Below are positions 3,431 through 29,010 of a DNA stretch of 64,000 nucleotides, one piece after another; within the stretch, counting starts at the first letter, position 1; each line of letters opens with the position of its first letter. The notes under the pieces are model-generated. The model did not search any database. It saw only the letters and a list, made by a program, of their open reading frames with translations, and was not told the origin of the DNA. This stretch comes from Acinetobacter phage nACB2: sequence record OQ032512.1. One strand, written 5' to 3'. A program made the translations under genes and the position numbers.

Positions 3431-3892
3431 ATGAAAAAATTAGCAGACATTCTTGTAGAACGACCATTGGGTGCAGATATTCTTCCGTACTGCGTGGAGA
3501 TTAACCCTGAAGTTGACGGCAACAATAACTTCAACCGCATTCGTGAAACGTTGAAACGCGTTGGTATTCAAAGCGCTTCTCATTCTAACACACTAAATCA
3601 ATCATGTCATATTTTCTTCCATGAAGGCAAATATTACTTGATGCACTTCTTGATGATGTTTATGTTTGATGGTCATCAGTCTAAACTAGATGAAGATGAC
3701 ATCAAGCGCACTCAATGTGTAGCCTATATGTTAGAGCAATGGGGATTATGCACCATTGTTAATAAAGAAGTTCTTGAAAAACCAAGTGAAGAACGTTTTA
3801 TGCACGGTCTGCGCGTAGTCAAATATCGTGATTCTAACAACTGGACATTCCGTTCTATTTACAAAATGCGCAAGGAAACGCCTAATGGCTGA
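3431..3892 (+). CDS. regA: RegA translational repressor
   Basis: RETLKRVGI...QSCHIFFHEGKYYLMHF...DGHQ...EDD...WGLCTIV aligns with T4 RegA. ATG at 3431 is in frame with the track ORF 3395..3892. Confidence 0.75.
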   Translation: MKKLADILVERPLGADILPYCVEINPEVDGNNNFNRIRETLKRVGIQSASHSNTLNQSCHIFFHEGKYYLMHFLMMFMFDGHQSKLDEDDIKRTQCVAYMLEQWGLCTIVNKEVLEKPSEERFMHGLRVVKYRDSNNWTFRSIYKMRKETPNG

Positions 3893-4778
3893 TTTATATC
3901 AACCGTTGTTACCACGATGGTTAAACTATTGCCACGCCATGGTCACTACGCTTGATTTAGACCCTGTCTATAGTGGCATGCGCGGTGCGTTCTTGTCTCA
4001 AGAGATAACAAGAGACCAATTCGACAACTTCATGGTTAGCTTCGCTCTTTTATATTCTTTAGAAGAAAGCTGTAAGATTGTTGAGATGAATCTTCCTACA
4101 AATGAATTGTGGAAGTATCTCATTGATAACTATGAGACATTGAAGCGCGGACGAGCAAGACGGTTCTTCCGTGAAAAGAAGGGAATGAACTGTCTCAACT
4201 ATCTTGTTGAACATTTTGAAACTTCTACTCAGTTTATTGAAGAAATGTATGATCCATGTTATGAAAAGATGGCTGAGAAGTTTGCTAAAGTTCCATCTTT
4301 TGGTCCATACTTCACTTGGAAGTGGTTAGATTTATATGACCGCGTATACGGTATGGAGTGTAAAATCACTCTAGACTACGCCGTACAAAATCTACCAGGA
4401 GCTCCGATCAAAGGCGCTAAACTAGTGTCTTCAGAACTTTGGCCAGAAGATGAGTTTGAACTCAAACGCGTTCTACAGCATATGATTCAAGAATGTCAAC
4501 GCGTTGGTCTTATGGCACCACCTTCGCTAGACCGTTTGGTAGACATTCAAGAGATTGAGACGTGTTTATGCGGCATTGTACATATGTACAAAGGCACACA
4601 TGTTGATAAAATAGGTAAAGACTTGAGAAGCAAGTATGAAGAGGTCTATAAAGTGGGTAAAACCGCTGGTTGGCTTTTGAAACACATGCCGAGACCTCTA
4701 CCTCATGACATTGAATTTAATGATCCGTACCTGAAAGTTGAAGATTCGTCTTCATCATTCAACCTATTAGACCTGTAG
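3885..4778 (+). CDS. Hypothetical ~300-aa protein, paralog A of 7991..8956; candidate DNA base-modification enzyme (aGPT-Pplase-like?)
   Basis: Shared motif block FGPYFTWKWLDLYD versus WGGFMAYELVTDL. Lies in the hydroxymethylase/kinase neighbourhood. Start taken at MADLYQPLL. Confidence 0.35.
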   Translation: MADLYQPLLPRWLNYCHAMVTTLDLDPVYSGMRGAFLSQEITRDQFDNFMVSFALLYSLEESCKIVEMNLPTNELWKYLIDNYETLKRGRARRFFREKKGMNCLNYLVEHFETSTQFIEEMYDPCYEKMAEKFAKVPSFGPYFTWKWLDLYDRVYGMECKITLDYAVQNLPGAPIKGAKLVSSELWPEDEFELKRVLQHMIQECQRVGLMAPPSLDRLVDIQEIETCLCGIVHMYKGTHVDKIGKDLRSKYEEVYKVGKTAGWLLKHMPRPLPHDIEFNDPYLKVEDSSSSFNLLDL

Positions 4779-4833
4779 ATTATAGGGATAAGACTTGAAG
4801 AAGAAAATATTTCGGAAAAAGTTAAAATTTTTC

Positions 4834-4863
4834 CTTTACTTCTTCAAGTAATAATTCAATAAT
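4834..4863 (+). promoter_or_regulatory. Early promoter CTTTAC-N18-AATAAT (weaker -10)
   Basis: Same architecture as the other early promoters. Confidence 0.35.
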
Positions 4864-4939
4864 AGTAATCATGAAAGGCAAGGTACAAAATCAAAACCAA
4901 GCCTCAATTGATAAATTAACGCTCAACGGAGTAAACCAA

Positions 4940-5635
4940 ATGAAAGCTATTCTTAAACACATCGCGGATTCAACTGTAACTGTTACAATCGACAACCTTA
5001 CTCTTGAAACTTCTAAAGAAGTTGCTAAGACTCTACGTGTAGATAACTCACTAGATATTACTGCTGCGACATTAAATCGCATCATCAAAAACAAAAAATC
5101 TTCTGCTGGTTTCAACCTTGAAGTTGACGGCGAAATGTACCCTTGGTCAGACCGCGATATCAAAGTATTCGGTATCACAGAAGCAATTCAACCTTCTTTC
5201 GAAAATATCTCTCAAATCGTAGCTGAAGAAGCAGTACAACCAGTTGTTGAAGCTGTAGCTGCGGTAGCTGAAGTTATTGTAGAAAAAGAAGAAACTGAAG
5301 ATGCAGATGATCTTACAGCTGGAGAAGGCGTGAACTGGATGCGTCGTAACCCTAAAGGTCCTCAAGAACTTCTGAAAGTTCGTAAAAGCTCAAAAGTTTG
5401 GGAAATTATTGTAGCTCTCAAAAAACGCCGTATGACTCTCAAAGAATTACAAGAAACGTTATATGCTGTTGGTCTTGATGAAGATCAGATTGATGATTAC
5501 AAAGTTATTCAAGCAATGTATGATGTTATGTGGAAAGGTTACAACATCGCTAAAATTACATGTGCAGACGGTGAAGTGCGCTACGCTATCCGTACACTAG
5601 ACTTCAAAAAAGTTGACTCAATCTTAACTTACTAA
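4940..5635 (+). CDS. Hypothetical early protein with an acidic central linker
   Basis: Start chosen at the ATG preceded by the conserved leader CTCAACGGAGTAAACCAA. Confidence 0.5.
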   Translation: MKAILKHIADSTVTVTIDNLTLETSKEVAKTLRVDNSLDITAATLNRIIKNKKSSAGFNLEVDGEMYPWSDRDIKVFGITEAIQPSFENISQIVAEEAVQPVVEAVAAVAEVIVEKEETEDADDLTAGEGVNWMRRNPKGPQELLKVRKSSKVWEIIVALKKRRMTLKELQETLYAVGLDEDQIDDYKVIQAMYDVMWKGYNIAKITCADGEVRYAIRTLDFKKVDSILTY

Positions 5636-5648
5636 TAAACCCATACGG

Positions 5649-5688
5649 AGGGGCGTGAAGTCCCTCAACTTTTATACTACCTTGAGGG
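5649..5688 (+). terminator. Hairpin gaggg/ccctc plus a mutually exclusive ccctcaa/ttgaggg hairpin enclosing TTTTATACTACC
   Basis: Two mutually exclusive stems can be drawn. The T-rich motif is shared with sites at 1843-1853 and 7237-7249. Confidence 0.45.
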
Positions 5689-5695
5689 TTCCGAG

Positions 5696-6043
5696 ATGGA
5701 AATTTTGAATATTGTTGTTTTGGTTGTTTCTTCTTTTTTAATTCTAGTTGGTCTTTTGACTCTTGTATCTTGCTACAAAGAGCGCAAACGCAATAAATAC
5801 CTCACAGAATATAAAGCGCTACAAGAATTGAAGCCTAAACTGGACTACTTCAACATCAAATTGATCGAAGTGTCTGAAGGTCAATACAAATTTGTACAGT
5901 GTGCAAAATCAGGTAAACCAGTTTTCCAAATTCGCAAGCGCGGTAAAGGTGTAGACTTTGTGAAAATGGTTCCAGAATTCCAAGAACACAAAAAGGATGT
6001 TATGTCTGCTAGTCATCTAAACAAGGTGCTTCACGCGAGTTGA
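5696..6043 (+). CDS. Small membrane protein (N-terminal TM helix, basic C-terminus)
   Basis: Hydrophobic N-terminus LNIVVLVVSSFLILVGLLTLV. Confidence 0.5.
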   Translation: MEILNIVVLVVSSFLILVGLLTLVSCYKERKRNKYLTEYKALQELKPKLDYFNIKLIEVSEGQYKFVQCAKSGKPVFQIRKRGKGVDFVKMVPEFQEHKKDVMSASHLNKVLHAS

Positions 6044-7267: not shown

Positions 7268-7966
7268 ATGCATATCTCAGCTAAATTGAATGCTATGGAA
7301 AAACGAACAATGAGTCAAGTGGACTCTTCAATTGAAGCTATGCGCCAAATATGTTACGCTATAGATAACAATATGGCTTCAGACCTTGTATTGAAAGACA
7401 AAAATATTTCCCTTTTTCGCTGGGTGAATGAAGGCGGAGAAAGTAAGGTCATGAAAATGCTGGGCGATGATAAGATACAGGTTGGTAATGTATTTTCTAC
7501 GCGGTCTAGAGTTATTGTACACGGCGTGAATTGTATGGGTGTAATGGGTGCAGGTATAGCTGCACAGATACGTAGAAACTTTCCAAAAGCACATAGTGAA
7601 TACATTAAGTTTATCAACGAGTGTCGTATTAAACAAGAGTCTCCGTTGGGTAAAGCTCAGTTTGTTGATGTCGGTGGCGGAAATTACATTGTTAACGCCT
7701 TTACCCAAGAGAAAACAGCTAAAAAACAAGGAGATGTGGCCATCTCTTACAGCGCAATATTAATGTGTATGGAAGAGATTAAAGAGACCTGCTACTGTCT
7801 AGGTATTGACCGAATCGCTATGCCTAAAATTGGTTCTGATTTAGGTGGCGGAGATTGGAATATTATACGTTCAATCGTCAACGCTGTTTTTAATGATAGT
7901 CGCGTAGAGGTTACAGTATATGTTCTGCCGTCTACCTTTTTGAAGAATACAGGCACTAAGTTTTAA
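7268..7966 (+). CDS. Macro-domain protein (ADP-ribose binding/hydrolase family)
   Basis: VIVHGVNCMGVMGAGIAAQI matches the macro-domain nucleotide-binding motif (VNAAN...GGGV.GAI). Confidence 0.6.
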   Translation: MHISAKLNAMEKRTMSQVDSSIEAMRQICYAIDNNMASDLVLKDKNISLFRWVNEGGESKVMKMLGDDKIQVGNVFSTRSRVIVHGVNCMGVMGAGIAAQIRRNFPKAHSEYIKFINECRIKQESPLGKAQFVDVGGGNYIVNAFTQEKTAKKQGDVAISYSAILMCMEEIKETCYCLGIDRIAMPKIGSDLGGGDWNIIRSIVNAVFNDSRVEVTVYVLPSTFLKNTGTKF

Positions 7967-7990
7967 AAATCGGGTTTTGGAACATCGCAG

Positions 7991-8956
7991 ATGAATAACA
8001 AACATCTTATAGACATCAAACATGAATATGATTTCGACTTAGGATGGATTCTATATTTTATTGCTGAACGTCAGAGCATAATGCTAAAGAAAAACTCAGG
8101 TCTTCCAAAGTTTGAATGGACTGAAGATGCAATTTTTTCTGAATATCGTTTTTGTAACGTAGATCGAGAAGATGATAGAGTCACCACTTGGTTGAGAGAC
8201 AATATTCGAGAACCATTTGCAGATCACCCCGACCTTTGGCTGATGTTAGCTTTATCTAGATGGATCAACTGGCCACCTATGATTGAAGAATTGGCGAAAA
8301 GTAAATACTGGTTCGGAAAGCCTGAATTTAGTCTTCAAGGTCTAGCGGATACCATGCTTGAACGTCATAAACGCGGTGAAAAGGTGTATACCGCTTCTTA
8401 TATGATCAATACAGAAGGGGATAAGACATCTCCGTATCGCAACAAAACAAAACATGAATTTGTATGTTGTAAAGTGGTGGGTCAACTAATGGCTGATCGA
8501 GACCGTATTGAGAAAGAACTCAGTAGACCAAAATACACTCTAGAAGAAGCTTGTAATCTATTCCAAGAATACTCAAATTGGGGTGGGTTTATGGCTTACG
8601 AATTGGTTACTGATTTGAATCATACGCGGTATCTAGAGAATGCGCCTGATCGTTACACTTGGAGCAATCAAGGTATAGGCGCAAATCGTGGTATGAACCG
8701 ATTGACTGGAGAAACCAAACTTGAGAAAAATTGGGGTCAAGAAGTATGGAATGAATATAGCTTGAAAGTTATCAATGCCGTGCATAAGGCATACGATGAA
8801 GGTTTGATTCCTAATCACCTAATCTCCAAGTCTCAGATAGATGCTAGATGTATCGAGTCAGCTCATTGCGAGATGGACAAATATCTGAGAGTGAAGACTG
8901 GAGAAGGTCGTCCAAGATCAAAATACAATACCCACTCGAAATTTTACGCAGTATAA
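7991..8956 (+). CDS. Hypothetical ~320-aa protein, paralog B of 3885..4778
   Basis: Shared motif block with 3885..4778. Confidence 0.35.
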   Translation: MNNKHLIDIKHEYDFDLGWILYFIAERQSIMLKKNSGLPKFEWTEDAIFSEYRFCNVDREDDRVTTWLRDNIREPFADHPDLWLMLALSRWINWPPMIEELAKSKYWFGKPEFSLQGLADTMLERHKRGEKVYTASYMINTEGDKTSPYRNKTKHEFVCCKVVGQLMADRDRIEKELSRPKYTLEEACNLFQEYSNWGGFMAYELVTDLNHTRYLENAPDRYTWSNQGIGANRGMNRLTGETKLEKNWGQEVWNEYSLKVINAVHKAYDEGLIPNHLISKSQIDARCIESAHCEMDKYLRVKTGEGRPRSKYNTHSKFYAV

Positions 8957-9036: not shown

Positions 9037-10149
9037 ATGCAACCGCCTATGTTTATTACAGGACTAACAATTAATCAGACTGTTGGACGCGCTATCACCT
9101 CTATTATGCGTATGGGTAAAGAAATTGAAACTCGAAACGGTACAGCCAAATTTCTAAATGATATCACTTTGGAAATTCAAAACCCACGCGAGCGCCACCT
9201 TTCTCTAACTGGACGCAAAAGTAACATCTTCCAATTGATGGCTGAATCTTTTTGGGTTATGGCTGGACAAGATCAAGTTACAGGATTTCTAGAATTTTAT
9301 CTGCCTCGTGCTACAGATTATTCTGATGACGGCGCTCATTGGCACGGAGCTTATGGCCCACGTATATATGATCATGGTCAGATGGATGACTTGATTGAGA
9401 CCTTCCGTTCCGAAGGTAAAAATACACGCCGTGCTATTTTGATGATCGCTAACCCAATGCAAGATAATCTAACGACTATTCAACGCTTGTATGGCGAAGG
9501 TCATAAACCAAAAGACATTCCATGTAACCGCGAAATTCATTTTTATGTTACGGACAATAAGTTGAATTGTAAAGTTATTCAGCGTTCCGGCGATATGATT
9601 TTCGGTACTGGTTCAATCAATCCGTTTGAATTCACCTTCTTACAAGAAATCATCTATCAGCGTCTGTTGAAGTTACAAGGTTTTGAAGACCTAGAATTGG
9701 GTGTATACCGCTGGCACGTTACAAATGCTCATATCTATTCAAATTACTATCTTCAAGCTGAAGATGTAATGAAACACTTCGATGACGATAAAGAGCACGT
9801 TGAAGGTACTTTGCCTGTAGCTTATCCATTTACTAAAGAAATGTTTGCTCATAAGTTGAGTTCCCTGAACGAAATCATCGCTTGTGATAACGTAGAGCAT
9901 CTACGCGCTCTCGTCAACCATTACCCATTTGGTAAGTTCAATGAAATTATTGAATTGTATTATGTTCTAATCAAAGCATATACTTTGGGTAAAAAGATTA
10001 AAGAATTGCTTCCTGATCAGAAATTAGTCTTGAATATCTCTAGTATTCCAGATTCTTTAGCAGCTGCTATCGAAGGCTCAGCCTTCAAAAACTTTGATAT
10101 TAACTATGATACAGAAAGCGTATCTTTCCATCTTGTGGAGACAAAATAA
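9037..10149 (+). CDS. Thymidylate-synthase-family pyrimidine hydroxymethylase (dUMP/dCMP hydroxymethylase-like) with a C-terminal extension
   Basis: RRAILMIANP, PCNREIHFYV and IQRSGDMIFG correspond to the TS motifs RRxIxxxWNP, PCHxxxQFYV and QRSxD. His-to-Asn after the catalytic Cys as in T4 gp42. Confidence 0.7.
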   Translation: MQPPMFITGLTINQTVGRAITSIMRMGKEIETRNGTAKFLNDITLEIQNPRERHLSLTGRKSNIFQLMAESFWVMAGQDQVTGFLEFYLPRATDYSDDGAHWHGAYGPRIYDHGQMDDLIETFRSEGKNTRRAILMIANPMQDNLTTIQRLYGEGHKPKDIPCNREIHFYVTDNKLNCKVIQRSGDMIFGTGSINPFEFTFLQEIIYQRLLKLQGFEDLELGVYRWHVTNAHIYSNYYLQAEDVMKHFDDDKEHVEGTLPVAYPFTKEMFAHKLSSLNEIIACDNVEHLRALVNHYPFGKFNEIIELYYVLIKAYTLGKKIKELLPDQKLVLNISSIPDSLAAAIEGSAFKNFDINYDTESVSFHLVETK

Positions 10150-11321
10150 TGGGTCAACTCATCGTTCTATGCGGTGAACGCGGTGTGGGGAAAGATTTCC
10201 TCACATCAGCTGTAGCTGAACAAATGGCTAAATCTGGTATTAACGTCACACGTCTTTCTTTTAGTGATGAAGTGCGTCGCGTGGCATACGTGTTGTTCCC
10301 ATTTCTAAAGAATGTTTTGAATGACAATAAGAATGACCCAATTATCGGCAACTTAGACAATCCTAAAGAGTTTTCTTGGCGAGATATCATTAAGATGATA
10401 GGAAAGGTCTGTCGAGACGTCGATAGCTCTTATTTCGCCAAACGTTGGTCTGAGAATCAATCTCATCTAGTTCTAGAAAGTCCGTCAAATGATTTATTCT
10501 TCATCACGGATATGCGCACTCAAGATGAATACGATCTATTACGCAAAACAGCTCATACATTTGATAGTATTTTGTTTGTAAAAATTGAATCCGAAACAGG
10601 TTTACCTCCGGATGATTTTGAAAAGTGGACGCGCGAATTTAGTGATTACGACGTTCTGTTTAAGAATCTTCGTGATGAAAAATCTGTGGCTGATTTTATT
10701 AGCGCCTTGAATCTTAATGTTGGGATGCCTACGCGTCTAAACAAAAAGATGCTGAATACAATGTTAGAAATTCAGAATCGCAACAACGCACTCTATCTAG
10801 GAACAACAGACTGGCGTCAAAAGGCTGATCTACACAAATACTGCGCTGCCGCTGAGCGCGAGTTCTCTGAATTTCTAGATGAGATCACTACAGAGTGGGC
10901 TTGGTGGAAGAAAGGTGAACAACAATTTGATGTAAACAAAGCCGTTGTGGAATTTTGTGACTACATCTGCTTTAAGATGTCTGTACTATTGTTGAAATAT
11001 CCAGATTTTCAAGGCGTAAACGATGATGCTTACTTTGAACCGCGCGAAAGTATTAAAAACGTGGGGTTCGCCATTTGGTACGAGACCATCAAAACCAAGG
11101 GTATGTCTTATCTTCAGTATACGCCGTATGTAGCAATGGACTTCCAACGTCTAATGGAAGAAATTAATATCACACTTGATTATTTTAATATTACAGCAGA
11201 ACAGTTTTATAATACTATGTTGCAGGTTCTGGAACGTAATTCAGAACGCGCAGAAAAAATCTCTCAGGGCTTATTAGTAAATAAAGCAGCTGAAAATGAA
11301 ATCACTACGGTAGAGGAATAA
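10149..11321 (+). CDS. Fusion of dNMP kinase (T4 gp1-like) with an all-alpha NTP pyrophosphatase (MazG/gp56-like)
   Basis: N-terminus LIVLCGERGVGKDF resembles T4 gp1 MKLIFLSGVKRSGKDT. C-terminus EFSEFLDEI...VVEFCDYICFKM fits the MazG E-x-x-E / E-x-x-D motif. Confidence 0.6.
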   Translation: MGQLIVLCGERGVGKDFLTSAVAEQMAKSGINVTRLSFSDEVRRVAYVLFPFLKNVLNDNKNDPIIGNLDNPKEFSWRDIIKMIGKVCRDVDSSYFAKRWSENQSHLVLESPSNDLFFITDMRTQDEYDLLRKTAHTFDSILFVKIESETGLPPDDFEKWTREFSDYDVLFKNLRDEKSVADFISALNLNVGMPTRLNKKMLNTMLEIQNRNNALYLGTTDWRQKADLHKYCAAAEREFSEFLDEITTEWAWWKKGEQQFDVNKAVVEFCDYICFKMSVLLLKYPDFQGVNDDAYFEPRESIKNVGFAIWYETIKTKGMSYLQYTPYVAMDFQRLMEEINITLDYFNITAEQFYNTMLQVLERNSERAEKISQGLLVNKAAENEITTVEE

Positions 11322-12452: not shown

Positions 12453-13868
12453 ATGCAATTTGAAAATTTATTGTTGAGTACTTTGATTTACGCACCTCAG
12501 TTCGCGAACAAAGTAATCAATTTTATTGAACCTGATTATTTTACGGATATTGGCCAACGTAATACTTTCAAACTAATCAATCATTTTTACAAAAAATACA
12601 AAGCGCCACCGACTAAGGACGCTTTGCTTATTAACCTAAGCAATACCAATCTACCTGAAGCCATCTATGATCCTACTAGCGTAGCTATTCAGATGCTTTA
12701 TATGCCAGAAGATGAAATCAGTAATCTAGATTGGACATTTGATGAAACTGAAAAGTGGGCTCAAGAACGCGCTTTGTATATTGCTATGTCTACATCTCTG
12801 GCTGTGATGAACGGTGAAGACAGTAGCATTTCAAAGACAGGTATTCCTTCTATGATTCAGAAGGCGCTCGCAATACGTTTTGACCAATCTATTGGTCATG
12901 ACTATATTGATGACGCTCAGAAGCAGTGGGAGTATTATCAGAATCCAGCTAGTAAGATTCCTTACAAACTTGAGTGTATGAATAAAGTCACTCAAGGCGG
13001 TAATACGCGTAAAACTCTATCCATTGTTCAGGCAGGTATCAACGTAGGTAAAACTACATGGATGCTGAATATGGCTGCCGACTATGCTAAGCAAGGTCTA
13101 GACGGTATCTATTTTACACTAGAAATTGCCGAAGAAGTCCTACGCGAGCGTTTGGATGTACGTTTGTTCGGAGAGAATTCTGAACAGATCAGAGCGCACG
13201 ATTCTTTTGCCTATTTGAACCGCGTTAAAAAGATCAAAGATGAAAATTTTGGTCGAGTTGTAGTAAAACAGTTCGCGGCATCTTCTGCTCACGTTGGCCA
13301 CCTACGTCATGTGTGTCAAGAATTTGAGGTCAAACATGGTAAAAAGCCAGACTTCATCATGGTGGATTACCTTACACTATTGAACTCATCTGTACTCCAC
13401 CCTAGTACAAAGAGTGACTCGAACACGTACTTTACCAACGTAGCTGAGGAACTACGCGGTTTAATGATTGAGATGGATGCTATTGGTTGGTCAGCGCAAC
13501 AGTTCAACCGTTCTGGACAAGATGAAAAGGATCCTAAGTTGTCTAACTCAGGCTTATCTATTGGCGTTCAGGCTACTGCTGACTTTACATTGGCTCTAGT
13601 ATCACCTAATGAGCTGAAACAACAGGGTAAAGCAATTGGCATTGTTCTGAAAAACCGTTTTGCTAACAAGATGCATATTCCTAAGTTTGCGCTTGGTATT
13701 AATGACGATCTACAGATATTCTTTGACTTGCCTGAAGGCGAAGAATATAAAGACGTTTCTGATCGCATGGACGAGCAGATTCAAGAAGCCATGGCTCATG
13801 TAGATGCTACAGCAGCTAAAAAGACTCAAACTAAGACAATGAACATATCAGAATTGAATTTTGGTTAG
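12453..13868 (+). CDS. 41: Replicative DNA helicase gp41 (DnaB family)
   Basis: 471 aa, Walker A GINVGKTT, DnaB-like layout. Confidence 0.8.
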   Translation: MQFENLLLSTLIYAPQFANKVINFIEPDYFTDIGQRNTFKLINHFYKKYKAPPTKDALLINLSNTNLPEAIYDPTSVAIQMLYMPEDEISNLDWTFDETEKWAQERALYIAMSTSLAVMNGEDSSISKTGIPSMIQKALAIRFDQSIGHDYIDDAQKQWEYYQNPASKIPYKLECMNKVTQGGNTRKTLSIVQAGINVGKTTWMLNMAADYAKQGLDGIYFTLEIAEEVLRERLDVRLFGENSEQIRAHDSFAYLNRVKKIKDENFGRVVVKQFAASSAHVGHLRHVCQEFEVKHGKKPDFIMVDYLTLLNSSVLHPSTKSDSNTYFTNVAEELRGLMIEMDAIGWSAQQFNRSGQDEKDPKLSNSGLSIGVQATADFTLALVSPNELKQQGKAIGIVLKNRFANKMHIPKFALGINDDLQIFFDLPEGEEYKDVSDRMDEQIQEAMAHVDATAAKKTQTKTMNISELNFG

Positions 13869-13950
13869 GTCTTAAACTTTCAGTAATAATTGTTCCAATG
13901 TAAATAGATGTAAAGTTTTTACATTGGAACTTACTGAGAGGCACTACTCC

Positions 13951-16900
13951 ATGTCACAAATTTTGCTGGAAGCATTTAATTCCATCCCATACACCACAGA
14001 ACGTACTGAAAAGAATGGTCTGATGGATATCAGCTATACCTTTGAAGATGAAACAAAACACAGTTTCCGTTTCCACTTTGAAAAGCGCGTAAACTACGGT
14101 CGCAACGTATTTGTTCTGACTCTAGGCCAAAAAGCGCCTAACATCAAAATGTACAAGCGTGTATTTGGTAAGTTCCACAACCCATTACGCGTTATTGCTA
14201 CTCTCATTGAAATCATCAAAGACAACCGTCAAAAACGTTCTGATGTGAAAGGTCTTATCATTGAAGTTCCAGCTCAGGCTTTTGGCGCTCACGGTCGTCT
14301 AGTAGACAAAATTGTAAAACGCGAATTGCGTTCAGAACTGAAGGTTCAAGACCTTGATGTTACCATTGAAGAATTTGAAAAACTAGGTCTTCAAGGTATC
14401 ATTGCTACCGTTAAGCCGTACAACTTCGACAGCGTATTCAACGGTAAATTGATGAAGGAGCTGTTGGATAACCGTAGCGCAGATCGGAACGCGCCTGTCG
14501 TTGCTCAAACTGCTAAGAAACAGATTGTAATTGACACAAGATATGACGGCGTTTGGCAAAATGCCAAAAGTTTCAGAGTCTTTGTTTCTACTCTTGAAAA
14601 AGATGAAGGCAAAGGCGTTATTGACGCTCTAGAGAAATGCAACTTCAAATATCTAGGCGACAATCCATTAGCGCATCGTTTGATTTTTGCCTATCCTGGT
14701 GAATACGCAGATAAATTGAATCAAGACCTAAACAAAGCAATTGAACTCGTGAACTCATCTACGGAGTTTGAAGCGTCAATAGGAGAAAAGGAAGTCATAA
14801 TCTCTCATATGTTTAAATACGAAGATAGAGCAGTAGCGTATTTCTCTTCACCAACTGAATTGAAAGTGGCTCAAAAAATTGTTTCGTCTGCTGGTTACGA
14901 AGACATAGAAATTTCTGTTGAGACTTCGAAGTATCGTATGGTTGATACTACCGAAAAATTATCTTGTAAGGAATTCAATGCTTTGCTCTCAACTTTTATC
15001 GGCGACGGCAAAATTATTTCTGAACGCACATCTGAAATAGCTGGCGCAGATGATATTTCTACAGCGGAACAAAAATTCCATCTCGAACATCAAAAGGGTG
15101 GCTTCAAGATTGTAACAACTTCTCCATTAGCTACAATCTTGCTATTGAATGATCTACAATTAGACCTTACTGATAATAAAGATGGTTCTGTTTATGTGAA
15201 GTTGTCTCACTTCAGTAAAACAGTTGGTACTAAAAAGCAAGTTGTTAATGCTCTAACTGCCGCTGGTTATGTTGAAGGTGAGCATGTCGCGACTCCTGGT
15301 TCAGCTGCATCAACTTCGAAGACTAAACTCGATACGTCAGATGTGAAGCCATCTAAGCAATCAATTGATGTACAGATTGAAGATGCTATCGAAGCCAATA
15401 AAGGTCGCGCTGAAGAAGTGTTGAAAGAAAGTTTCAAATATAATACTTCAGGCCATACTGTCGCCAACTATAAGTTCCTACGAGCGGTGCGCCCTAAAGA
15501 CGGATATGTTCTATATGTATTCGAACTTATGGTTTCTCCTAAGTTTGGAAGTCCTGTGAAACAAAAGGCTTTTGTCAAAGGGTATATCGAAACTGACGCT
15601 CTAATTGGTTATACTGGTAGTGGCGCTGAACGCAAACCAGTGATTGCTCCTGTAAGAATATCTATCGACCGAACAGTTACAAGTTGGGTTGGATATGATT
15701 ACGAACCAGATGTTGCTGAGCGCTTCGAAAAGACTATGTCTTTCGATGAACCTAAACCAACATCAATCAACTGGTCTACTGCTGAGACTGCTTTGAAAGG
15801 TCAATACTTCAAAGATAGCAACTACAAAGTTGTTAACATGAAAGTTGATGAGTTGATCTCTAGACAATCGACTGATTTCCGTATTGATGCAGGTAGCAAT
15901 ACAAACCGTATCAAAGGAAGAGCTGAACGCGCTCTGGCGCACATCGCTTCTGGCGCTCCAATGGACATGCCAGTTGTTGATATTGATGCTCAAGGTAATC
16001 TTCAGGTTGTAGATGGTCGTCATCGCATTGCTGTAGCTAAAGAAATGGGTCTGAAAGAGATTCCAGTGTTCTTGAATGATGCTGCTAGAAAACCAAAACT
16101 ATTTAATGATTTGACAATCAAATTGGCGAAACAAGGTAATCTACCGCAAAAAACGATCAATGTGAAAGGAGATGATGTTTTCGTAACAAAATTATCAATG
16201 CCCGGAATGTATAATACTGAAGAACGTAATCTGTCATTCTTAATGGATTCTAATCCGTTATACACTTCTATTGATAATCAGAATGCAGAAGTAAAGCGTC
16301 GCCTACTTCAACTTGTTGGTTCTTCCGCAGAACGAATTAAATCTGCAATTGAAAGTTGGACTGGTGGGCGTATTAAGGTAGAGAGCGTTAGCGGTTCTGG
16401 TGTGAAATCTGAACCTAAAACGGATTTATCTTTCCTTCTTAACAAAGACATCTCTTCAGACGCAGCGGAACCAATCTTGAAATACCTGAAGAAAAATATC
16501 AAAGTTGGTACCAAAAAGTACGAACTAAACAGTGAAAGTGGTGTTAATTATTTGAATAAGATTCTAAACCAATTGGTGAGTCTGATTCCAAATTCTAACG
16601 ACCATTCATTCTCTATTGGCGGAAACATTAACGCTAGAAAGGCAGGCGGTCTAAAAGTTGTTGTAAATGATATGCACAGAGGTGGATATTATGAAGGTAA
16701 TACGCACTTAGCTGTAGCGGTACAAGTTGGCGGAGCGTACACATACGGCATTAATTCTGCAGTTTGTAAGTTCTTGAAAGAGGTATTTGCTAACTTGACT
16801 AATATAGGAGATAGTCTTCCTGAGGGTAGAGTTTTCGACAAACACGGTACCAATTTCTCTACGGTTGGTGTAGCTTATACTGGAAAAGAGTACTATAGCA

Positions 16901-17232
16901 AACCAACATTTGCTAATGTCAAGATTACCGCAAAACATCTTGTTTTGTCTGAAAAAATGAACGAAGGCATTAAGGAAGACTTGACAGGCGTTGCACCTAA
17001 AGTGAACAAAGTAGATAAATCTATTTTAGAAACTGCTATGCGTCAAATGGGTATCTACCATTCAGCATTTGGTTACGGCGGTGGTTCATTTACCGTAACA
17101 ATGACTGAGGGAGTTGTTGATATTCTACCTGTTTCCGGAAATGTAATTGCATTGAGCAAACTGTTAGGTGTAAAATTAGGTCAAGACTTAGTTCAAGATG
17201 AACGCGGTGGACTACGCTTTGATATTGCATAA
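13951..17232 (+). CDS. Large (1094 aa) multidomain protein with a central ParB/Srx-fold domain (DGRHR...IPV)
   Basis: VVDGRHRIAVAKEMGLKEIPVFL is the ParB/DGQHR-type motif. ATG 13951 has a GAGAGG SD; the track start at 13924 is TTG. Confidence 0.6.
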   Translation: MSQILLEAFNSIPYTTERTEKNGLMDISYTFEDETKHSFRFHFEKRVNYGRNVFVLTLGQKAPNIKMYKRVFGKFHNPLRVIATLIEIIKDNRQKRSDVKGLIIEVPAQAFGAHGRLVDKIVKRELRSELKVQDLDVTIEEFEKLGLQGIIATVKPYNFDSVFNGKLMKELLDNRSADRNAPVVAQTAKKQIVIDTRYDGVWQNAKSFRVFVSTLEKDEGKGVIDALEKCNFKYLGDNPLAHRLIFAYPGEYADKLNQDLNKAIELVNSSTEFEASIGEKEVIISHMFKYEDRAVAYFSSPTELKVAQKIVSSAGYEDIEISVETSKYRMVDTTEKLSCKEFNALLSTFIGDGKIISERTSEIAGADDISTAEQKFHLEHQKGGFKIVTTSPLATILLLNDLQLDLTDNKDGSVYVKLSHFSKTVGTKKQVVNALTAAGYVEGEHVATPGSAASTSKTKLDTSDVKPSKQSIDVQIEDAIEANKGRAEEVLKESFKYNTSGHTVANYKFLRAVRPKDGYVLYVFELMVSPKFGSPVKQKAFVKGYIETDALIGYTGSGAERKPVIAPVRISIDRTVTSWVGYDYEPDVAERFEKTMSFDEPKPTSINWSTAETALKGQYFKDSNYKVVNMKVDELISRQSTDFRIDAGSNTNRIKGRAERALAHIASGAPMDMPVVDIDAQGNLQVVDGRHRIAVAKEMGLKEIPVFLNDAARKPKLFNDLTIKLAKQGNLPQKTINVKGDDVFVTKLSMPGMYNTEERNLSFLMDSNPLYTSIDNQNAEVKRRLLQLVGSSAERIKSAIESWTGGRIKVESVSGSGVKSEPKTDLSFLLNKDISSDAAEPILKYLKKNIKVGTKKYELNSESGVNYLNKILNQLVSLIPNSNDHSFSIGGNINARKAGGLKVVVNDMHRGGYYEGNTHLAVAVQVGGAYTYGINSAVCKFLKEVFANLTNIGDSLPEGRVFDKHGTNFSTVGVAYTGKEYYSKPTFANVKITAKHLVLSEKMNEGIKEDLTGVAPKVNKVDKSILETAMRQMGIYHSAFGYGGGSFTVTMTEGVVDILPVSGNVIALSKLLGVKLGQDLVQDERGGLRFDIA

Positions 17233-17246
17233 ATTGTAGAATGATA

Positions 17247-17276
17247 AAGGGAAGCTTCGGCTTCCCTTTTGATTTT
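17247..17276 (+). terminator. Intrinsic terminator aagggaagc-ttcg-gcttccctt plus T-tract
   Basis: 9-bp stem, T-run. Confidence 0.7.
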
Positions 17277-17327: not shown

Positions 17328-18713
17328 TTGATGAACATTTTTGAAATTGTACAAGCTGTAAAAAACGCTAAAGGATCAAACAATAAGATTGGTCTATTGA
17401 ATGCCAACTCAGGTAACAAAATACTCCAGAAGTATCTTTCCACTGTATATGACACACGTCTTTGCTTCTACGTACAGAAATACGAAGCTGGTACTCCAAC
17501 TAAGCAAGAATATGATGATACTGAGATCGAACGCATGTTGGATTTTGTATCTGCTCTTTCAGAGCGCTTATTAACAGGTGAAGCAGCTCAAGAAGCAATC
17601 AAAGAATTCACCGCAACATTGTCTACAGATGGACAAGAGTTATTCGCATCTTTGATACGCCGTGATATCAAAGCTGGCGTTGCTTCTGGTACTCTAATCA
17701 AAATCTGGCCAAACAGTATCTTCATTGAACCGTATCAGCGTTGCGTTCTAGCTAAAGACACTAAAAGTGATATCAAAGGCTGGGGATTCTACGTTTCTCA
17801 GCTGAAGGCTGACGGCTCTTTCGCATCATTGAATGCTTCTGATGAATTACACCATTGCGCGTCTCGTGCTGGAACAATCTACCCTAATAGTGTTCCATTC
17901 ATGAACCTCATCAATGAAGTTCGCCAAAAGCAAGACGAAATTGTATTCAATGAATACAAAGTCAAAGATTGTACAATTGAAGGTGAATTCCTAGTGCGCG
18001 TTGATGGCGAAATTCTACCTCGCGAAGAATCTAATGGTATGCTTAACAGTTTACAGCAATCTGGTAAAGAACTTCCAGAAAACGCTGAACTTGTATACTT
18101 CATCTGGGATATTGTACCAACTGAAAAGCGCAAATACAAAGGTTCTTTTGGCGTGGGTTACAAACAACGCTTTGAAGCTATAGAACGCCTATTCTCCGAA
18201 GGCACTCTAGTGTTTCCTATTGAAACTAAATTCTTCAATAGTTATGAGCAATGTGTAGAACACTTCTTGGAAAAAATCAATTTAGGTCTTGAAGGCACTA
18301 TCATCAAACATCCAAATGCAATTTGGGAAGATGGTGATAACAAACTTCAGATCAAAATGAAGATTGAAGCTGAATGCGAATTGAAAATTGTTGGATTCAA
18401 TCCAGCTGAAAAAGCCTCAAAATATGAGCACCTTTTTGGTTCGTTACAATTGGAATCCGAAGATGGATTGCTGAAAGTGGGTTGTTCTTCGGGCTTGAAA
18501 GATGCAGTGCGAGCAGAGCTTCATCAGATTGGAGATAACCTAATCGGACAATTGGTGACAGTACGCTTCAATGACATTTTGAAACCAAAAGAAAATGGTT
18601 CAGATTGTCATAGTTTATTTTTACCGCGTTTTGTTGAATTGCGTCTGGACAAAACTGTTGCTGACACACTTACCCGCATTCAAGATATTTTTGAAGACGC
18701 GAAAAAGAAATGA
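17328..18713 (+). CDS. 30: ATP-dependent DNA ligase (T4 gp30 family)
   Basis: KADG adenylation motif (SQLKADGSF). Overall layout like T4 gp30. Confidence 0.8.
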   Translation: MMNIFEIVQAVKNAKGSNNKIGLLNANSGNKILQKYLSTVYDTRLCFYVQKYEAGTPTKQEYDDTEIERMLDFVSALSERLLTGEAAQEAIKEFTATLSTDGQELFASLIRRDIKAGVASGTLIKIWPNSIFIEPYQRCVLAKDTKSDIKGWGFYVSQLKADGSFASLNASDELHHCASRAGTIYPNSVPFMNLINEVRQKQDEIVFNEYKVKDCTIEGEFLVRVDGEILPREESNGMLNSLQQSGKELPENAELVYFIWDIVPTEKRKYKGSFGVGYKQRFEAIERLFSEGTLVFPIETKFFNSYEQCVEHFLEKINLGLEGTIIKHPNAIWEDGDNKLQIKMKIEAECELKIVGFNPAEKASKYEHLFGSLQLESEDGLLKVGCSSGLKDAVRAELHQIGDNLIGQLVTVRFNDILKPKENGSDCHSLFLPRFVELRLDKTVADTLTRIQDIFEDAKKK

Positions 18714-18743: not shown

Positions 18744-18810
18744 AAGCCCTGTCTAGTACAGGGCTTTTTAATACCAAAATACTGGGTTCCAGACGGTAGG
18801 TTGGAACGTA
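18744..18810 (+). repeat. Composite element: terminator hairpin (agccctgtctagtacagggct + T-run) followed by stem-loop GTTCCA-gACGGTAGGt-TGGAAC
   Basis: Near-copy at 47809..47872 in the same orientation. Confidence 0.55.
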
Positions 18811-18820
18811 GGAAAAAGTC

Positions 18821-18850
18821 CTTTACTTTTTCTTGAATATTGATTATAAT
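18821..18850 (+). promoter_or_regulatory. Early promoter CTTTAC-N18-TATAAT
   Basis: Part of a 78-bp repeat that is about 97 percent identical to 19211..19290. Confidence 0.6.
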
Positions 18851-18891
18851 TCTAATCATAAGGTTCAATAACACTCAACGGAGTAAATCAA

Positions 18892-19190: not shown

Positions 19191-19210
19191 TTGATAATAC
19201 GAAAATACCA

Positions 19211-19240
19211 CTTTACTTTTTCTTGAATATTGATTATAAT
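19211..19240 (+). promoter_or_regulatory. Early promoter CTTTAC-N18-TATAAT (second copy of the 78-bp repeat)
   Basis: Identical -35/-10 elements to 18821..18850. Confidence 0.6.
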
Positions 19241-19281
19241 TCTAATCATAAGGTTCAATATCACTCAACGGAGTAAATCAG

Positions 19282-19635: not shown

Positions 19636-19680
19636 AGTGTAAATATTCTCAGTACAAGAACTCTCACATTGGAAATAGCC

Positions 19681-28053: not shown

Positions 28054-28345
28054 GAATATTGCGATGCAAGATATTAACACAGAAGATTTGGTTGAGAAAT
28101 TCATCTATAAGGTGAATTTCAAAGGCAAGAAGCGCAAGAAATTATCTTGTCCTCCTGGCTATCATCCAAATGCAGAAGGTACTGCTTGCGTTCCAATGAC
28201 TTCATCTATGAAGACTCATTTGAAGTTGGGTGCAAGAGCAGGTAAGCGCACTAAAAAGGCAATGGGCGTTGGCTTTATCAAGCGTACAGTACGTAAGATG
28301 CGTAAAGCCATGAAGTTCCGTAAAGCATATGGGTACTCAAAATGA
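28019..28345 (+). CDS. 68: Prohead core protein (gp68-like), very basic C-terminus
   Basis: Called by position between gp67 and gp21. Start uncertain; an alternative ATG is at 28064. Confidence 0.4.
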   Translation: MLAAMASTKTSENIAMQDINTEDLVEKFIYKVNFKGKKRKKLSCPPGYHPNAEGTACVPMTSSMKTHLKLGARAGKRTKKAMGVGFIKRTVRKMRKAMKFRKAYGYSK

Positions 28346-29010
28346 CACAAGGTCTATTGTTTTTACGCGAATCAACTGATCAAGTAGAGATTCTCAATGA
28401 GAATACTTCTACTGGTAAAGCGATGTACATTGAGGGACCGTTCATCAGTTGTAATATGAAAAACCGTAATGGACGCGTTTACCCTAAGTCAATGATGGAA
28501 GCAGTCGTAGACCAATACAAAACTGAATACATCAATGAAAGACGCGCTTTCGGGGAATTTTTACACCCTGAATATCCTTTTCCAAACCCTAAGATGGCAG
28601 CTATCCGTATCGACTCTTTAGAGTGGAAAGGCGACACTGTTATCGGTAAGGCGAAGGTGCTTGAGTCTATGGATGAAGGGCGTAAATTAAAAGCCCTAAT
28701 TGACGAAGGTTTCAAGTTGGGTGTTTCTACGCGTGGTATGGGTAAACTTGCTCGTGACAAGTTCACGGTTGAACAATATCGCATGAATGCGGTTGATGCC
28801 GTTGATCTTCCATCTGGTCAACCTTGCTACTTTGATGTTGTAAACGAAAGCGCTATGTGGTATCCATCTAGTTCAGGTGGTTGGGAACAACGCACTCCAG
28901 AAGGTGAAGTGATTAATGAAGCTGAAACAGCTGAACAAGCTGCAGGCTTGGATCATGAAAAATTCTTAGAGCGCTTGAACATGGCTTTACACAATAAAAT
29001 TTACGGCTAA
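28342..29010 (+). CDS. 21: Prohead core protease (gp21)
   Basis: NRNGRVYPKSMM matches T4 gp21 NQNGRIYPVEVL. 222 aa. Confidence 0.8.
   Translation: MTQGLLFLRESTDQVEILNENTSTGKAMYIEGPFISCNMKNRNGRVYPKSMMEAVVDQYKTEYINERRAFGEFLHPEYPFPNPKMAAIRIDSLEWKGDTVIGKAKVLESMDEGRKLKALIDEGFKLGVSTRGMGKLARDKFTVEQYRMNAVDAVDLPSGQPCYFDVVNESAMWYPSSSGGWEQRTPEGEVINEAETAEQAAGLDHEKFLERLNMALHNKIYG

Follow-up and report, generated by a model that had tools for sequence, protein, structure and literature searches.

The gene nACB2_015 of the Acinetobacter phage nACB2 (Ackermannviridae, 136,560 bp; described in PMC10057805) probably encodes a virion-delivered, multi-module protein of the 'polyvalent'-like kind. We analysed it in a stretch of 64,000 nucleotides from record OQ032512.1, called the window below. 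The N-terminal module of the protein, M1, is a relative of the T4 Alt N-terminal domain, a central module, M5, has the ParB/Srx fold, and the window encodes a gp21-type prohead protease together with other T4-type core genes. For nACB2_015 itself, packaging, cleavage and injection are inferred, as is what its ParB module does.

13951..17232, plus strand: whole gene nACB2_015, an open reading frame (ORF) with its translation of 1093 amino acids (aa) plus stop; about eight modules with low-confidence linkers between them
13951..14484, plus strand: module M1 (aa 1-178), Alt-N-like and family-defining; per-residue model confidence (pLDDT) >90; phrog_3867, E=1.8e-11

Relation of the N-terminal module to T4 Alt

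The first-pass annotation described the product as an orphan whose parts outside the ParB segment match nothing. However, the N-terminal 140-190 aa match 343-348 phage records, and 12 relatives share several modules with the protein. M1 is carried by about 80 representative clusters, and its hosts are Kuttervirus, Limestonevirus and Taipeivirus-like Klebsiella phages as well as Vibrio, Aeromonas, Erwinia, Serratia and Ralstonia phages. The M1 proteins of these phages are 530-800 aa long and have M1 as the sole part in common with nACB2_015. Two metagenome M1 proteins (P0034 and P0061) end in ADPrib_exo_Tox domains, the Pfam family to which the catalytic domain of T4 Alt (aa 374-614) also belongs. 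Pfam gave no match to this R-S-E ADP-ribosyltransferase domain in nACB2_015.

An 81-sequence M1 profile was compared by hhalign with a two-sequence profile of T4 Alt and its Melville homologue, resulting in a probability of 75% and P=2.5e-5. The alignment covered 154 columns, from Alt residues 2 to 178. A word-indexed search with the T4 Alt N-terminus returned 5 near-identical matches only. Foldseek comparison of the whole-protein AlphaFold2 (AF2) model with BFVD, which is independent of the sequence comparison, returned first uncharacterised M1 proteins and then at least seven Alt ADP-ribosylases of T4-like phages (phiAS5, HY03, SP18, CF1, Henu6, 50AhydR13PP, and Melville), all with probability 1.00. 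These matches had about 175-226 aligned columns and, for most, a root-mean-square deviation of 4.3-5.4 A. Their query-normalised TM-score (TMq) of 0.13 over 1093 residues corresponds, by our arithmetic, to about 0.8 over a 178-residue domain. We infer that the match is between M1 and the Alt N-terminal domain (Alt-N), because nACB2_015 lacks the ADP-ribosyltransferase domain and the aligned length equals that of M1. Other BFVD matches of similar aligned length, apparently M1 fusions, were proteins with zeta-toxin and deaminase domains.

M1 is thus a relative of Alt-N, and this flank of the ParB segment has in Alt a homologue of known function in T4-like phages, where the first-pass annotation had recognised none. 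Alt is a non-essential prohead-core protein of T4, present in about 40 copies and injected with the DNA (PMC9958956; PMC5512222). The gp21 protease cuts small N-terminal peptides off Alt and the internal proteins (PMC9958956).

M1 proteins in purified virions

The Salmonella phage Sajous1 encodes a 795-aa protein, gp214, which resembles CBA120 orf111 in length and gene neighbourhood and shows 36% identity to M1 over 140 aa. In CsCl-purified virions gp214 gave 196 spectra, behind only the capsid protein (924) and VriC (311), and its neighbours gp211 and gp215-217 were also detected (PMC10892097). In the Dickeya phage LIMEstone1, ORF082 matched the M1 hidden Markov model at 3e-48. ORF082 and ORF081 were each reported as a 'confirmed structural protein', with 4 and 23 unique peptides respectively, inside a structural-protein cluster (ORF78-85) that the authors left unexplained (PMC3296691). 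The two ORFs overlap by 23 nt and together correspond to one 531-aa gene of Ds16CZ (compared coordinates: 4416-6012 in the LIMEstone1 record L008 and 3456-5051 in the Ds16CZ record L007). M1-built proteins are abundant virion components in two genera; the mass spectra would fit a place in the head as well as one in the tail.

As a separate observation, the split of LIMEstone1 ORF081 and ORF082 could come from a frameshift, from an error in sequencing or from programmed shifting within a virion protein gene.

Leader peptide and prohead protease

In the sites below, an arrow marks the putative cut.

13951..13971, plus strand: leader MSQILLE, ending in L-x-E↓A; from its motif, a candidate propeptide for the T4-type prohead protease
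28342..29010, plus strand: T4 gp21-type prohead protease, a separate gene (Pfam Peptidase_S77, E=6.5e-30)

The motif [LIVMF]-x-E-[AS..]-[FLM]-[DN] was found near the N-terminus in 78 of the 81 M1-family representatives. Its Glu lies mostly at position 5-21, and the next residue is Ala in 57 and Ser in 16. T4 Alt starts with MELITELFDED and the Melville homologue with MLELNEVFDED, while the M1 family reads ...L-x-E-[AS]-F-[ND]-S-x-P-Y, giving L-x-E-[ALV]-F-[DN] as the N-terminal motif common to M1 and Alt. A leader of variable length stands before an invariant site, which is the pattern of a cleaved propeptide. The specificity of T4 gp21 is reportedly L/I-x-E↓, an assignment credited to Black, Showe and Steven (1994).

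Besides the protease, the window encodes a gp22-like scaffold rich in L-x-E sites and the gp23 capsid protein. The major capsid protein gene (29887-31209, plus strand) lies 0.9 kb past the Peptidase_S77 gene, and its product matches Gp23 from residue 67. The N-terminal extension of about 55 residues ends in VLNE↓AAPT, a likely maturation site. Because a gp21-type protease, a scaffold with L-x-E sites and a capsid propeptide ending in LNE↓A are present together, cleavage at MSQILLE↓AFNS is plausible.

Module train and mosaic relatives

The 12 relatives (gene 00021 of phage SH-Ab 15599 and metagenome proteins) are 1282-1798 aa long. They share aa 1-190 of nACB2_015 at 50-84% identity and aa ~990-1093 at 45-97%, and differing subsets of them share the middle segments. 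Mosaic borders were observed at about aa 190, 355, 455, 600, 712, 826, and 990. The whole-protein AF2 model, built on an alignment that is shallow for M2-M4 and M6, had a mean pLDDT of 71.9 with troughs at aa 180-187, 351-372, 445-470, 575-600, 821-834, and 995-1021. We placed the module borders where they are because the mosaic breakpoints coincide with these low-confidence linkers.

All 15 of 15 multi-segment relatives were collinear with nACB2_015, showing that modules are gained or lost and never permuted. P0002 shows 97% identity over aa 600-1093, against 84% identity over aa 1-183; between them it carries other sequence, unrelated over aa 190-350. This jump in identity indicates a recent cassette exchange. 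The modules other than M1 and M5 are as follows.

14518..15000, plus strand: module M2 (aa ~190-350), alpha/beta; in P0003, P0004, P0006, P0007, and P0009-P0011; pLDDT ~80-93
15067..15285, plus strand: module M3 (aa ~373-445); common to P0002-P0011, at offsets 850-1280
15355..15678, plus strand: module M4 (aa ~469-576), two helices and then a beta-sheet; in P0004, P0005, and P0012; pLDDT ~55-73
16105..16410, plus strand: module M6 (aa ~719-820); in P0002, P0003, P0005, and P0014; pLDDT ~72-88
16453..16920, plus strand: module M7 (aa ~835-990), alpha/beta; stand-alone relatives, alignment A5; pLDDT ~85-93
16957..17229, plus strand: module M8 (aa ~1003-1093), C-terminal and conserved; identity of 45-97% in the 12 relatives, all of which carry it

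M2 also occurs in P0014, at a different offset. M3 ends in the conserved junction EGEHVATPGSA, which is single-copy and is followed by different modules. M7 belongs to a domain family, about 120 aa in size and undescribed, whose motif reads N-D-x-H-R-G-G-Y-Y-x-G-S-T…V-G-G…T-D-G-T-N-W-S; its members include P0020, P0021, P0059, P0060, P0080, P0086, P0098, P0109, P0113, and P0120. The relatives of M7 are proteins of 130-340 aa or lie inside proteins of 837-873 aa. A Pfam scan of 10 M7 relatives gave no family apart from one sub-threshold DUF5661 match outside the module. Summed PDB matches to designed Kelch proteins arose through GGYYxG, with no single stretch significant, and a Kelch assignment of M7 was rejected as an artefact. 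M8 was also found in the 145-aa stand-alone protein P0035 and has no Pfam family.

Pfam detected no credible domain in six full-length relatives, and no family at all, Zn-ribbon and TOPRIM included, in the full nACB2_015. Searches of PDB sequences with the whole protein and with the family profile A4 gave nothing meaningful. The Gly-rich repeats that had been noted in the C-terminal part did not hold up: Tandem Repeats Finder detected no repeat array in nACB2_015, and the GG motifs are conserved single-copy motifs of M7 and M8.

The ParB/Srx module

15748..16086, plus strand: module M5 (aa ~600-712), ParB/Srx-fold domain by phrog_1033, profile and AF2/Foldseek
16012..16026, plus strand: D688-G-R-H-R692 motif, from the alignment of 30 module relatives

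The segment VVDGRHRIAVAKEMGLKEIPVFL is present in nACB2_015, with D688-R692 at nt 16012-16026. PHROGs gave a weak ParB-like match (phrog_1033, aa 626-708, E=1.8e-4), and a word-indexed homologue search with the ParB segment alone found no relatives. An exhaustive HMMER search of 1.84 billion representatives showed about 40 proteins that match aa ~600-735 alone, mostly 120-430 aa in length. In alignment A1 of 30 module relatives G-R-H-R is invariant (30/30) and is preceded by D or N, with the pattern N-x-I-G-x-R...A..H..G.PMD.P upstream. In the superfamily, an alpha/beta fold of strand, helix and strands with a further helix behind the motif, a Gly/Arg motif (GxxR, DGxHR or FGGCHR) marks the point where strand meets helix at the nucleotide pocket. 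The A1 profile retrieved the ParB/Srx-fold serine kinase SbnI from PDB (E=1.8e-4).

The AF2 model of aa 590-748 had a mean pLDDT of 79.5 and a core >90. In Foldseek its top 50 PDB matches all belonged to the ParB/Srx superfamily (ParB, KorB, Noc, PadC, Osa, SbnI, SerK, sulfiredoxin, and Atu1540), with modest E-values (from 3e-3) and probabilities up to 1.00. Osa showed the best TM-score among solved structures (TMq 0.45, 112 columns). By profile and by fold M5 is a ParB/Srx-fold domain, in agreement with the first-pass annotation.

Within the superfamily, the Osa family of Pfam (PFIN, PF22162) matched 10 of the 30 module relatives, with a best E of 2.8e-5, and did not match the window's own module. 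Neither ParB_N nor ddrB-ParB of Pfam matched any of the 30 relatives or the window's own module. NCBIfam SerK gave a weak, sub-threshold match of M5, and PADLOC gave a marginal methyltransferase match on the ParB core and nothing else. M5 represents an undescribed branch of the fold that is nearest to Osa/PFIN and SbnI/SerK. Stand-alone relatives of M5 include fusions to ART-PolyVal, Phage_Mu_F, and DUF7178.

The motif reads VVDGRHRIA, which confirms the DGxHR type proposed earlier in place of the GERRxRA of partition ParB. The accompanying likeness to DndB and DGQHR proteins was borne out in the DGxHR type only: the motif is DGRHR and not DGQHR, DndB matched 4 of the 30 relatives weakly (best E=0.019), and no dnd-type genes were present among the scanned neighbours. 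Pfam detected no helix-turn-helix (HTH) or ParB-C family, the module ends at about aa 712 with an unrelated module next, and no ParA was found among the 30 window ORFs scanned against PHROGs and Pfam, a minority of the ORFs of the window. As GERRxRA, HTH and ParA are missing, M5 is, judged by its sequence features, not a partition-type CTP clamp.

Gene neighbourhood and transcription signals

nACB2_015 is an uninterrupted ORF from the ATG at 13951 to the stop at 17230-17232. As had been noted, it is a giant ORF after the helicase, with a length of 1093 residues rather than 1094. The ORF product is 100% identical to nACB2_015, and a ribosome-binding site (GAGAGG, 13936-13941) lies 5' of the gene. 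Megablast of 10 kb of the window against the phage record collection, which does not hold nACB2 itself, gave no match.

The upstream neighbour (12453-13868) is a gp41/DnaB-type helicase by Pfam and PHROGs, as described before, and the downstream neighbour (17328-18713) is the ATP-dependent DNA ligase (ligase 30). In Pfam and PHROGs scans the gene order of the window was sliding clamp, clamp loader, and RegA, followed by a thymidine-hypermodification block (macrodomain, 5-hydroxymethyldeoxyuridine (5-hmdU) DNA kinase, dUMP hydroxymethylase, and a kinase/pyrophosphatase fusion). UvsX, helicase 41, nACB2_015, ligase 30, and two small ORFs come next, and then baseplate gene 6, a second baseplate gene, sheath, portal, prohead protease, scaffold, and major capsid protein. 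Because of this order, nACB2_015 lies at the border of replication and virion genes and not deep in a replication operon. The earlier statement that it is not among virion genes was not supported, since baseplate gene 6 follows less than 1 kb past the ligase, before the tail and head genes, and M1 proteins occur in the virions of two other Ackermannviridae phages.

The order helicase-X-ligase is kept in SH-Ab 15599, the closest sequenced relative, and in a 25-kb metagenome contig. In CBA120, Vi01, Sajous1, and LIMEstone1 the M1 gene has another location, with the gp46/47 genes on one side and primase 61 on the other. T4 alt adjoins ligase 30 and baseplate gene 54, and the Alt family has been reported as associated with baseplate genes (PMC5512222). 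Like T4 alt, nACB2_015 abuts ligase 30 near baseplate genes, with the order relative to the ligase swapped.

17246..17276, plus strand: intrinsic terminator, AAAGGGAAGC-TTCG-GCTTCCCTTT and then TGATTTT; a 10-bp G+C hairpin (17246-17269) plus T tail
13892..13930, plus strand: 13-bp inverted repeat GTTCCAATGTAAA / TTTACATTGGAAC with perfect arms (13892-13904 and 13918-13930), between the helicase stop and the nACB2_015 start

The strong terminator reported for the gene end was confirmed as this hairpin with its T tail, which is the region's sole terminator-like site; past it, the next gene has a sigma-70-like promoter. In the 82-nt spacer upstream of nACB2_015 no sigma-70-like site was found on the plus strand. 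The inverted repeat in this spacer encloses TGTAAATA (13899-13906), one mismatch from the T4 late-promoter box, and is a candidate late promoter or regulatory hairpin. A yrTAAATA box also stands upstream of baseplate gene 6 (19638-19645), and SH-Ab 15599 has CATAAATA at both equivalent places (the nACB2_015 counterpart and gene 6), again within an inverted repeat. The conserved position of the box is a suggestive hint of late expression of nACB2_015. The T4 consensus TATAAATA occurs once in the window. TGTAAATA was dropped as an enriched late-promoter motif, since its 8-mer count in the window equals chance, and it stays a positional observation conserved in SH-Ab 15599. The SH-Ab 15599 inverted repeat around CATAAATA (L001 ~7945-7990) has a conserved structure and a different sequence compared with nACB2.

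Proposed mechanism and alternative explanations

In the mechanism that we favour, M1, as the relative of Alt-N, would bring nACB2_015 into the prohead core during head assembly, and the T4-type prohead protease would cut the short leader after L-x-E↓A. The protein would exit the head with the DNA at infection, and its middle modules would be exchangeable cargo acting in the first minutes of infection. M8 would be a second conserved element beside M1, the packaging adaptor. For M5, nucleotide binding or hydrolysis is the most likely activity, and the module may also cut or nick DNA, be it that of the host, a resident plasmid or a competing phage. That the phage's own hypermodified thymidine DNA would be spared is pure speculation, and we regard a nuclease or nickase telling unmodified from hypermodified DNA as possible rather than probable. 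The anti-defence factor named among the first candidates is compatible with these findings.

Several points weigh against virion delivery. The M1 profile compared with T4 Alt alone, though aligned end-to-end, was non-significant in hhalign (probability 3.6%, P=0.012), and the Foldseek output carries no query coordinates, so the placing of the Alt matches on M1 is indirect. The virion proteomes are those of Sajous1 and LIMEstone1, not of nACB2 or SH-Ab 15599, and M1 is the only part common to nACB2_015 and the Kuttervirus and Limestonevirus virion proteins. Mass spectrometry is blind to head versus tail, and Sajous1 gp214 was labelled a 'tail completion protein' by its authors. nACB2_015 is co-oriented with the replication genes and directly follows them, and TGTAAATA is no commoner in the window than expected by chance. 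The LIMEstone1 authors placed a putative middle, not late, promoter upstream of the ORF084-081 block (PMC3296691). The window's own M5 scored below threshold for every Pfam ParB-type family. For seven of the 8 modules no biochemical activity is assigned, and 'multi-effector' is said by analogy.

It is unlikely that nACB2_015 is a structural part of the tail or baseplate, such as a tail completion, accessory or decoration protein that is anchored by M1 and M8 and exposes variable modules, like Ackermannviridae tail spikes. The abundance of M1 proteins in virions would suit such a part, as would the name 'putative tail completion protein' in some GenBank records of M1 proteins and the position of baseplate gene 6, 2.4 kb downstream. 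Conserved ends with a variable middle are also the pattern of receptor-binding proteins. However, Pfam and PHROGs showed no similarity to any tail, baseplate or spike family, the AF2 model contains no trimeric beta-helix or fibre-like prediction, and the only named fold relatives of M1 are the head-packaged Alt proteins. The enzyme-type ParB/Srx cargo and the ADP-ribosyltransferases of relatives suit the interior of a host cell and not a tail.

Another alternative, in line with the first-pass view, is a replication or DNA-modification enzyme made together with the helicase, recombinase and ligase. Its ParB/Srx domain would serve as nickase, kinase or NTP-switch clamp and have the hypermodified phage DNA as substrate, perhaps within the 5-hmdU pathway encoded a little upstream. 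The distribution of the ParB module bears on this alternative: just five of the 12 relatives carry it (P0002, P0005, P0009, P0010, and P0011). SH-Ab 15599 is among the seven that lack it, and its diaminopropyl-thymine (dapT) hypermodification pathway was reconstituted from other enzymes (PMC13458397). This absence argues against a core replication or DNA-modification role, and a link to the hypermodification pathway was not supported. Module swapping between near-identical phages would be unexpected for such an enzyme, M1 is related to Alt and to no replisome protein, and the M1 gene of Kuttervirus and Limestonevirus has a different place, amid genes for proteins that were detected in virions. 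In its favour, helicase 41 and ligase 30 flank nACB2_015 on its own strand, and the genes for 5-hmdU DNA kinase and dUMP hydroxymethylase lie 5 kb upstream of it; SH-Ab 15599 and the metagenome contig keep this order. The gene has no sigma-70-type promoter of its own, making read-through from the helicase gene possible, and among the nearest sequence matches of M5 are two small-molecule kinases, SbnI and SerK, as well as DndB with a weak match. We consider this explanation quite improbable.

Very improbable, too, is a non-packaged host-takeover protein of the early or middle phase, that is, a cytoplasmic effector using M1 for oligomerisation or for binding a host target. Virion proteomes do hold contaminants, and the LIMEstone1 list includes DNA ligase, rIIB, and PhoH; these gave 1 peptide each, whereas M1 proteins rank near the top of both proteomes by their numbers of spectra and peptides. 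The orientation of nACB2_015 with early and middle genes, the strong terminator after it and the putative middle promoter of the LIMEstone1 block agree with such a protein, against which stand the M1-Alt relation and the conserved L-x-E↓A site.

A replacement of the primase or helicase loader is ruled out, since Pfam and PHROGs found no Zn-ribbon or TOPRIM (the absence that had been noted was correct) and gp61 is encoded elsewhere in SH-Ab 15599, CBA120, and LIMEstone1. In SH-Ab 15599 the separate gp61-type primase lies at 71.5 kb, about 55 kb from a locus with the same helicase-X-ligase order, and the idea of a primase slot in a replication operon, with the ORF standing in for primase 61, is not supported. 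No primase was found within the 64-kb window; by synteny, that of nACB2 is expected just past its end. A place after gene 41 does not imply a replication role.

Comparison with known systems

Injected multi-domain phage effectors are already known, with Alt as the prototype. nACB2_015 shares with T4 Alt the N-terminal domain of about 175 aa, with the same predicted fold, a detectable profile similarity and the L-x-E-[ALV]-F-[DN] motif. Both genes adjoin ligase 30 at the edge of baseplate genes, and relatives of nACB2_015 carry ADPrib_exo_Tox cargo. In contrast to Alt, nACB2_015 is 60% longer and has, in place of an ADP-ribosyltransferase domain, about seven other modules including ParB/Srx. 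Its order relative to the ligase is inverted, and its packaging and cleavage are predicted.

The polyvalent proteins (Iyer et al. 2017; e.g. P1 DdrB) are likewise large multi-domain proteins with extreme mosaicism between close relatives, a ParB/Srx domain without a ParA partner and virion association of family members; relatives of M5 occur as fusions with ART-PolyVal and MuF. In the domain network of these proteins ParB/Srx domains are hubs, and they have been proposed to be NTP-regulated DNases or NTP sensors early in infection (PMC5512222). However, nACB2_015 gave no Pfam match to ddrB-ParB, MPTase, LPD or ART-PolyVal. Polyvalent proteins are recognised by at least two effector domains of the described repertoire, and in nACB2_015 only ParB/Srx can be assigned. 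The presumed packaging domain is Alt-N-like and not MuF, portal or DarA-linked, and its modules are mostly in no described family. Compared with DdrB-like ParB, the D or N before GRHR is present in A1, but the ddrB-ParB model matches no A1 member.

Osa of the IncW plasmid pSa (PDB 4ovb and 4o7k) has the top TM-score to the M5 model, and its family model, PFIN, matches 10 of the 30 module relatives. With ATPase and DNase activities, Osa serves in conflicts that mobile elements wage with one another (PMC5512222). It differs as a stand-alone plasmid protein of about 190 aa that serves as a plasmid fertility-inhibition factor, and PFIN does not score the window's M5. SbnI and SerK (PDB 5ujd and 5x0b) are the sole solved proteins found by the sequence profile and have the same helix-strand-DG[VR]HR-helix core; only about 55 residues align, and the kinase C-terminal domain and the siderophore or cysteine-biosynthesis context are absent from nACB2_015. 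MuF-anchored effectors similarly combine a conserved head-associated N-terminus with variable C-terminal enzymes (PMC9503650), and one M5 relative is fused to Phage_Mu_F, but their anchor domain is another one and nACB2_015 has no MuF.

Three features seem undescribed in the searchable literature: the use of Alt-N throughout Ackermannviridae as a common anchor for long trains of reshuffled modules, the leader with its conserved L-x-E↓A site, and the DGRHR branch of ParB/Srx; newer Pfam releases hold the Alt N-terminal region as PF26846. As a broader and tentative proposal, Alt-N might be a general MuF-like head-packaging adaptor that hauls reshuffled cargo trains in Ackermannviridae and in some Vibrio, Aeromonas, Erwinia, and Ralstonia phages. 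M2-M4 and M6-M8 would then be mostly undescribed effector families, and the DGRHR module a new Osa-like NTPase-DNase branch that is injected against unmodified resident DNA, which it would destroy or nick without harm to the phage's hypermodified thymidine DNA. This proposal is less likely than not to be correct.

If virion delivery is correct, a conserved Ackermannviridae protein that is among the most abundant virion proteins in two proteomes would be explained as a carrier of injected effectors, and the N-terminal region of T4 Alt would gain a testable packaging function. Module swaps between near-identical phages would mark the cargo as arms-race targets, making M2-M8 candidate anti-defence or host-takeover domains, and Alt-N could offer a natural handle by which to load Ackermannviridae heads with foreign proteins. 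The family includes therapy and biocontrol phages against Salmonella, E. coli O157, Klebsiella, Dickeya, and Acinetobacter.

Other observations

A 232-aa DarG-like macrodomain protein (7268-7966, plus strand; NCBIfam antitoxin_DarG, E=5.3e-20) is encoded immediately upstream of two genes (7991-8956 and 9037-10149), those for the 5-hmdU DNA kinase and the dUMP hydroxymethylase. The trio of macrodomain, kinase, and hydroxymethylase also occurs in metagenome contig L006. The macrodomain could reverse DarT-type thymidine ADP-ribosylation in a thymidine-hypermodifying phage. The next gene (10149-11321, plus strand) encodes a 390-aa fusion of a dNMP-kinase-like part (PHROG 139) and an NTP pyrophosphohydrolase (PHROG 173), and is probably the counterpart of the bifunctional dTTPase/dUTPase of SH-Ab 15599.

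Two near-identical copies of about 80 nt (~18810-18891 and ~19200-19281) consist of a sigma-70-like promoter and a leader (…ctttactttttcttgaatattgattataattctaatcataaggttcaata.cactcaacggagtaaatca.atg) and precede the two small ORFs that separate the ligase from baseplate gene 6. Leaders of a similar kind, 'cctttactt…caacggagt', were observed elsewhere in the window, upstream of 32808 (minus strand) and 54075 (minus strand). In SH-Ab 15599 (L009, 21662-25576) the DNA polymerase is annotated as two coding sequences with a 300-aa ORF between them, which may reflect the insertion of an intein, intron or homing endonuclease, as in LIMEstone1.

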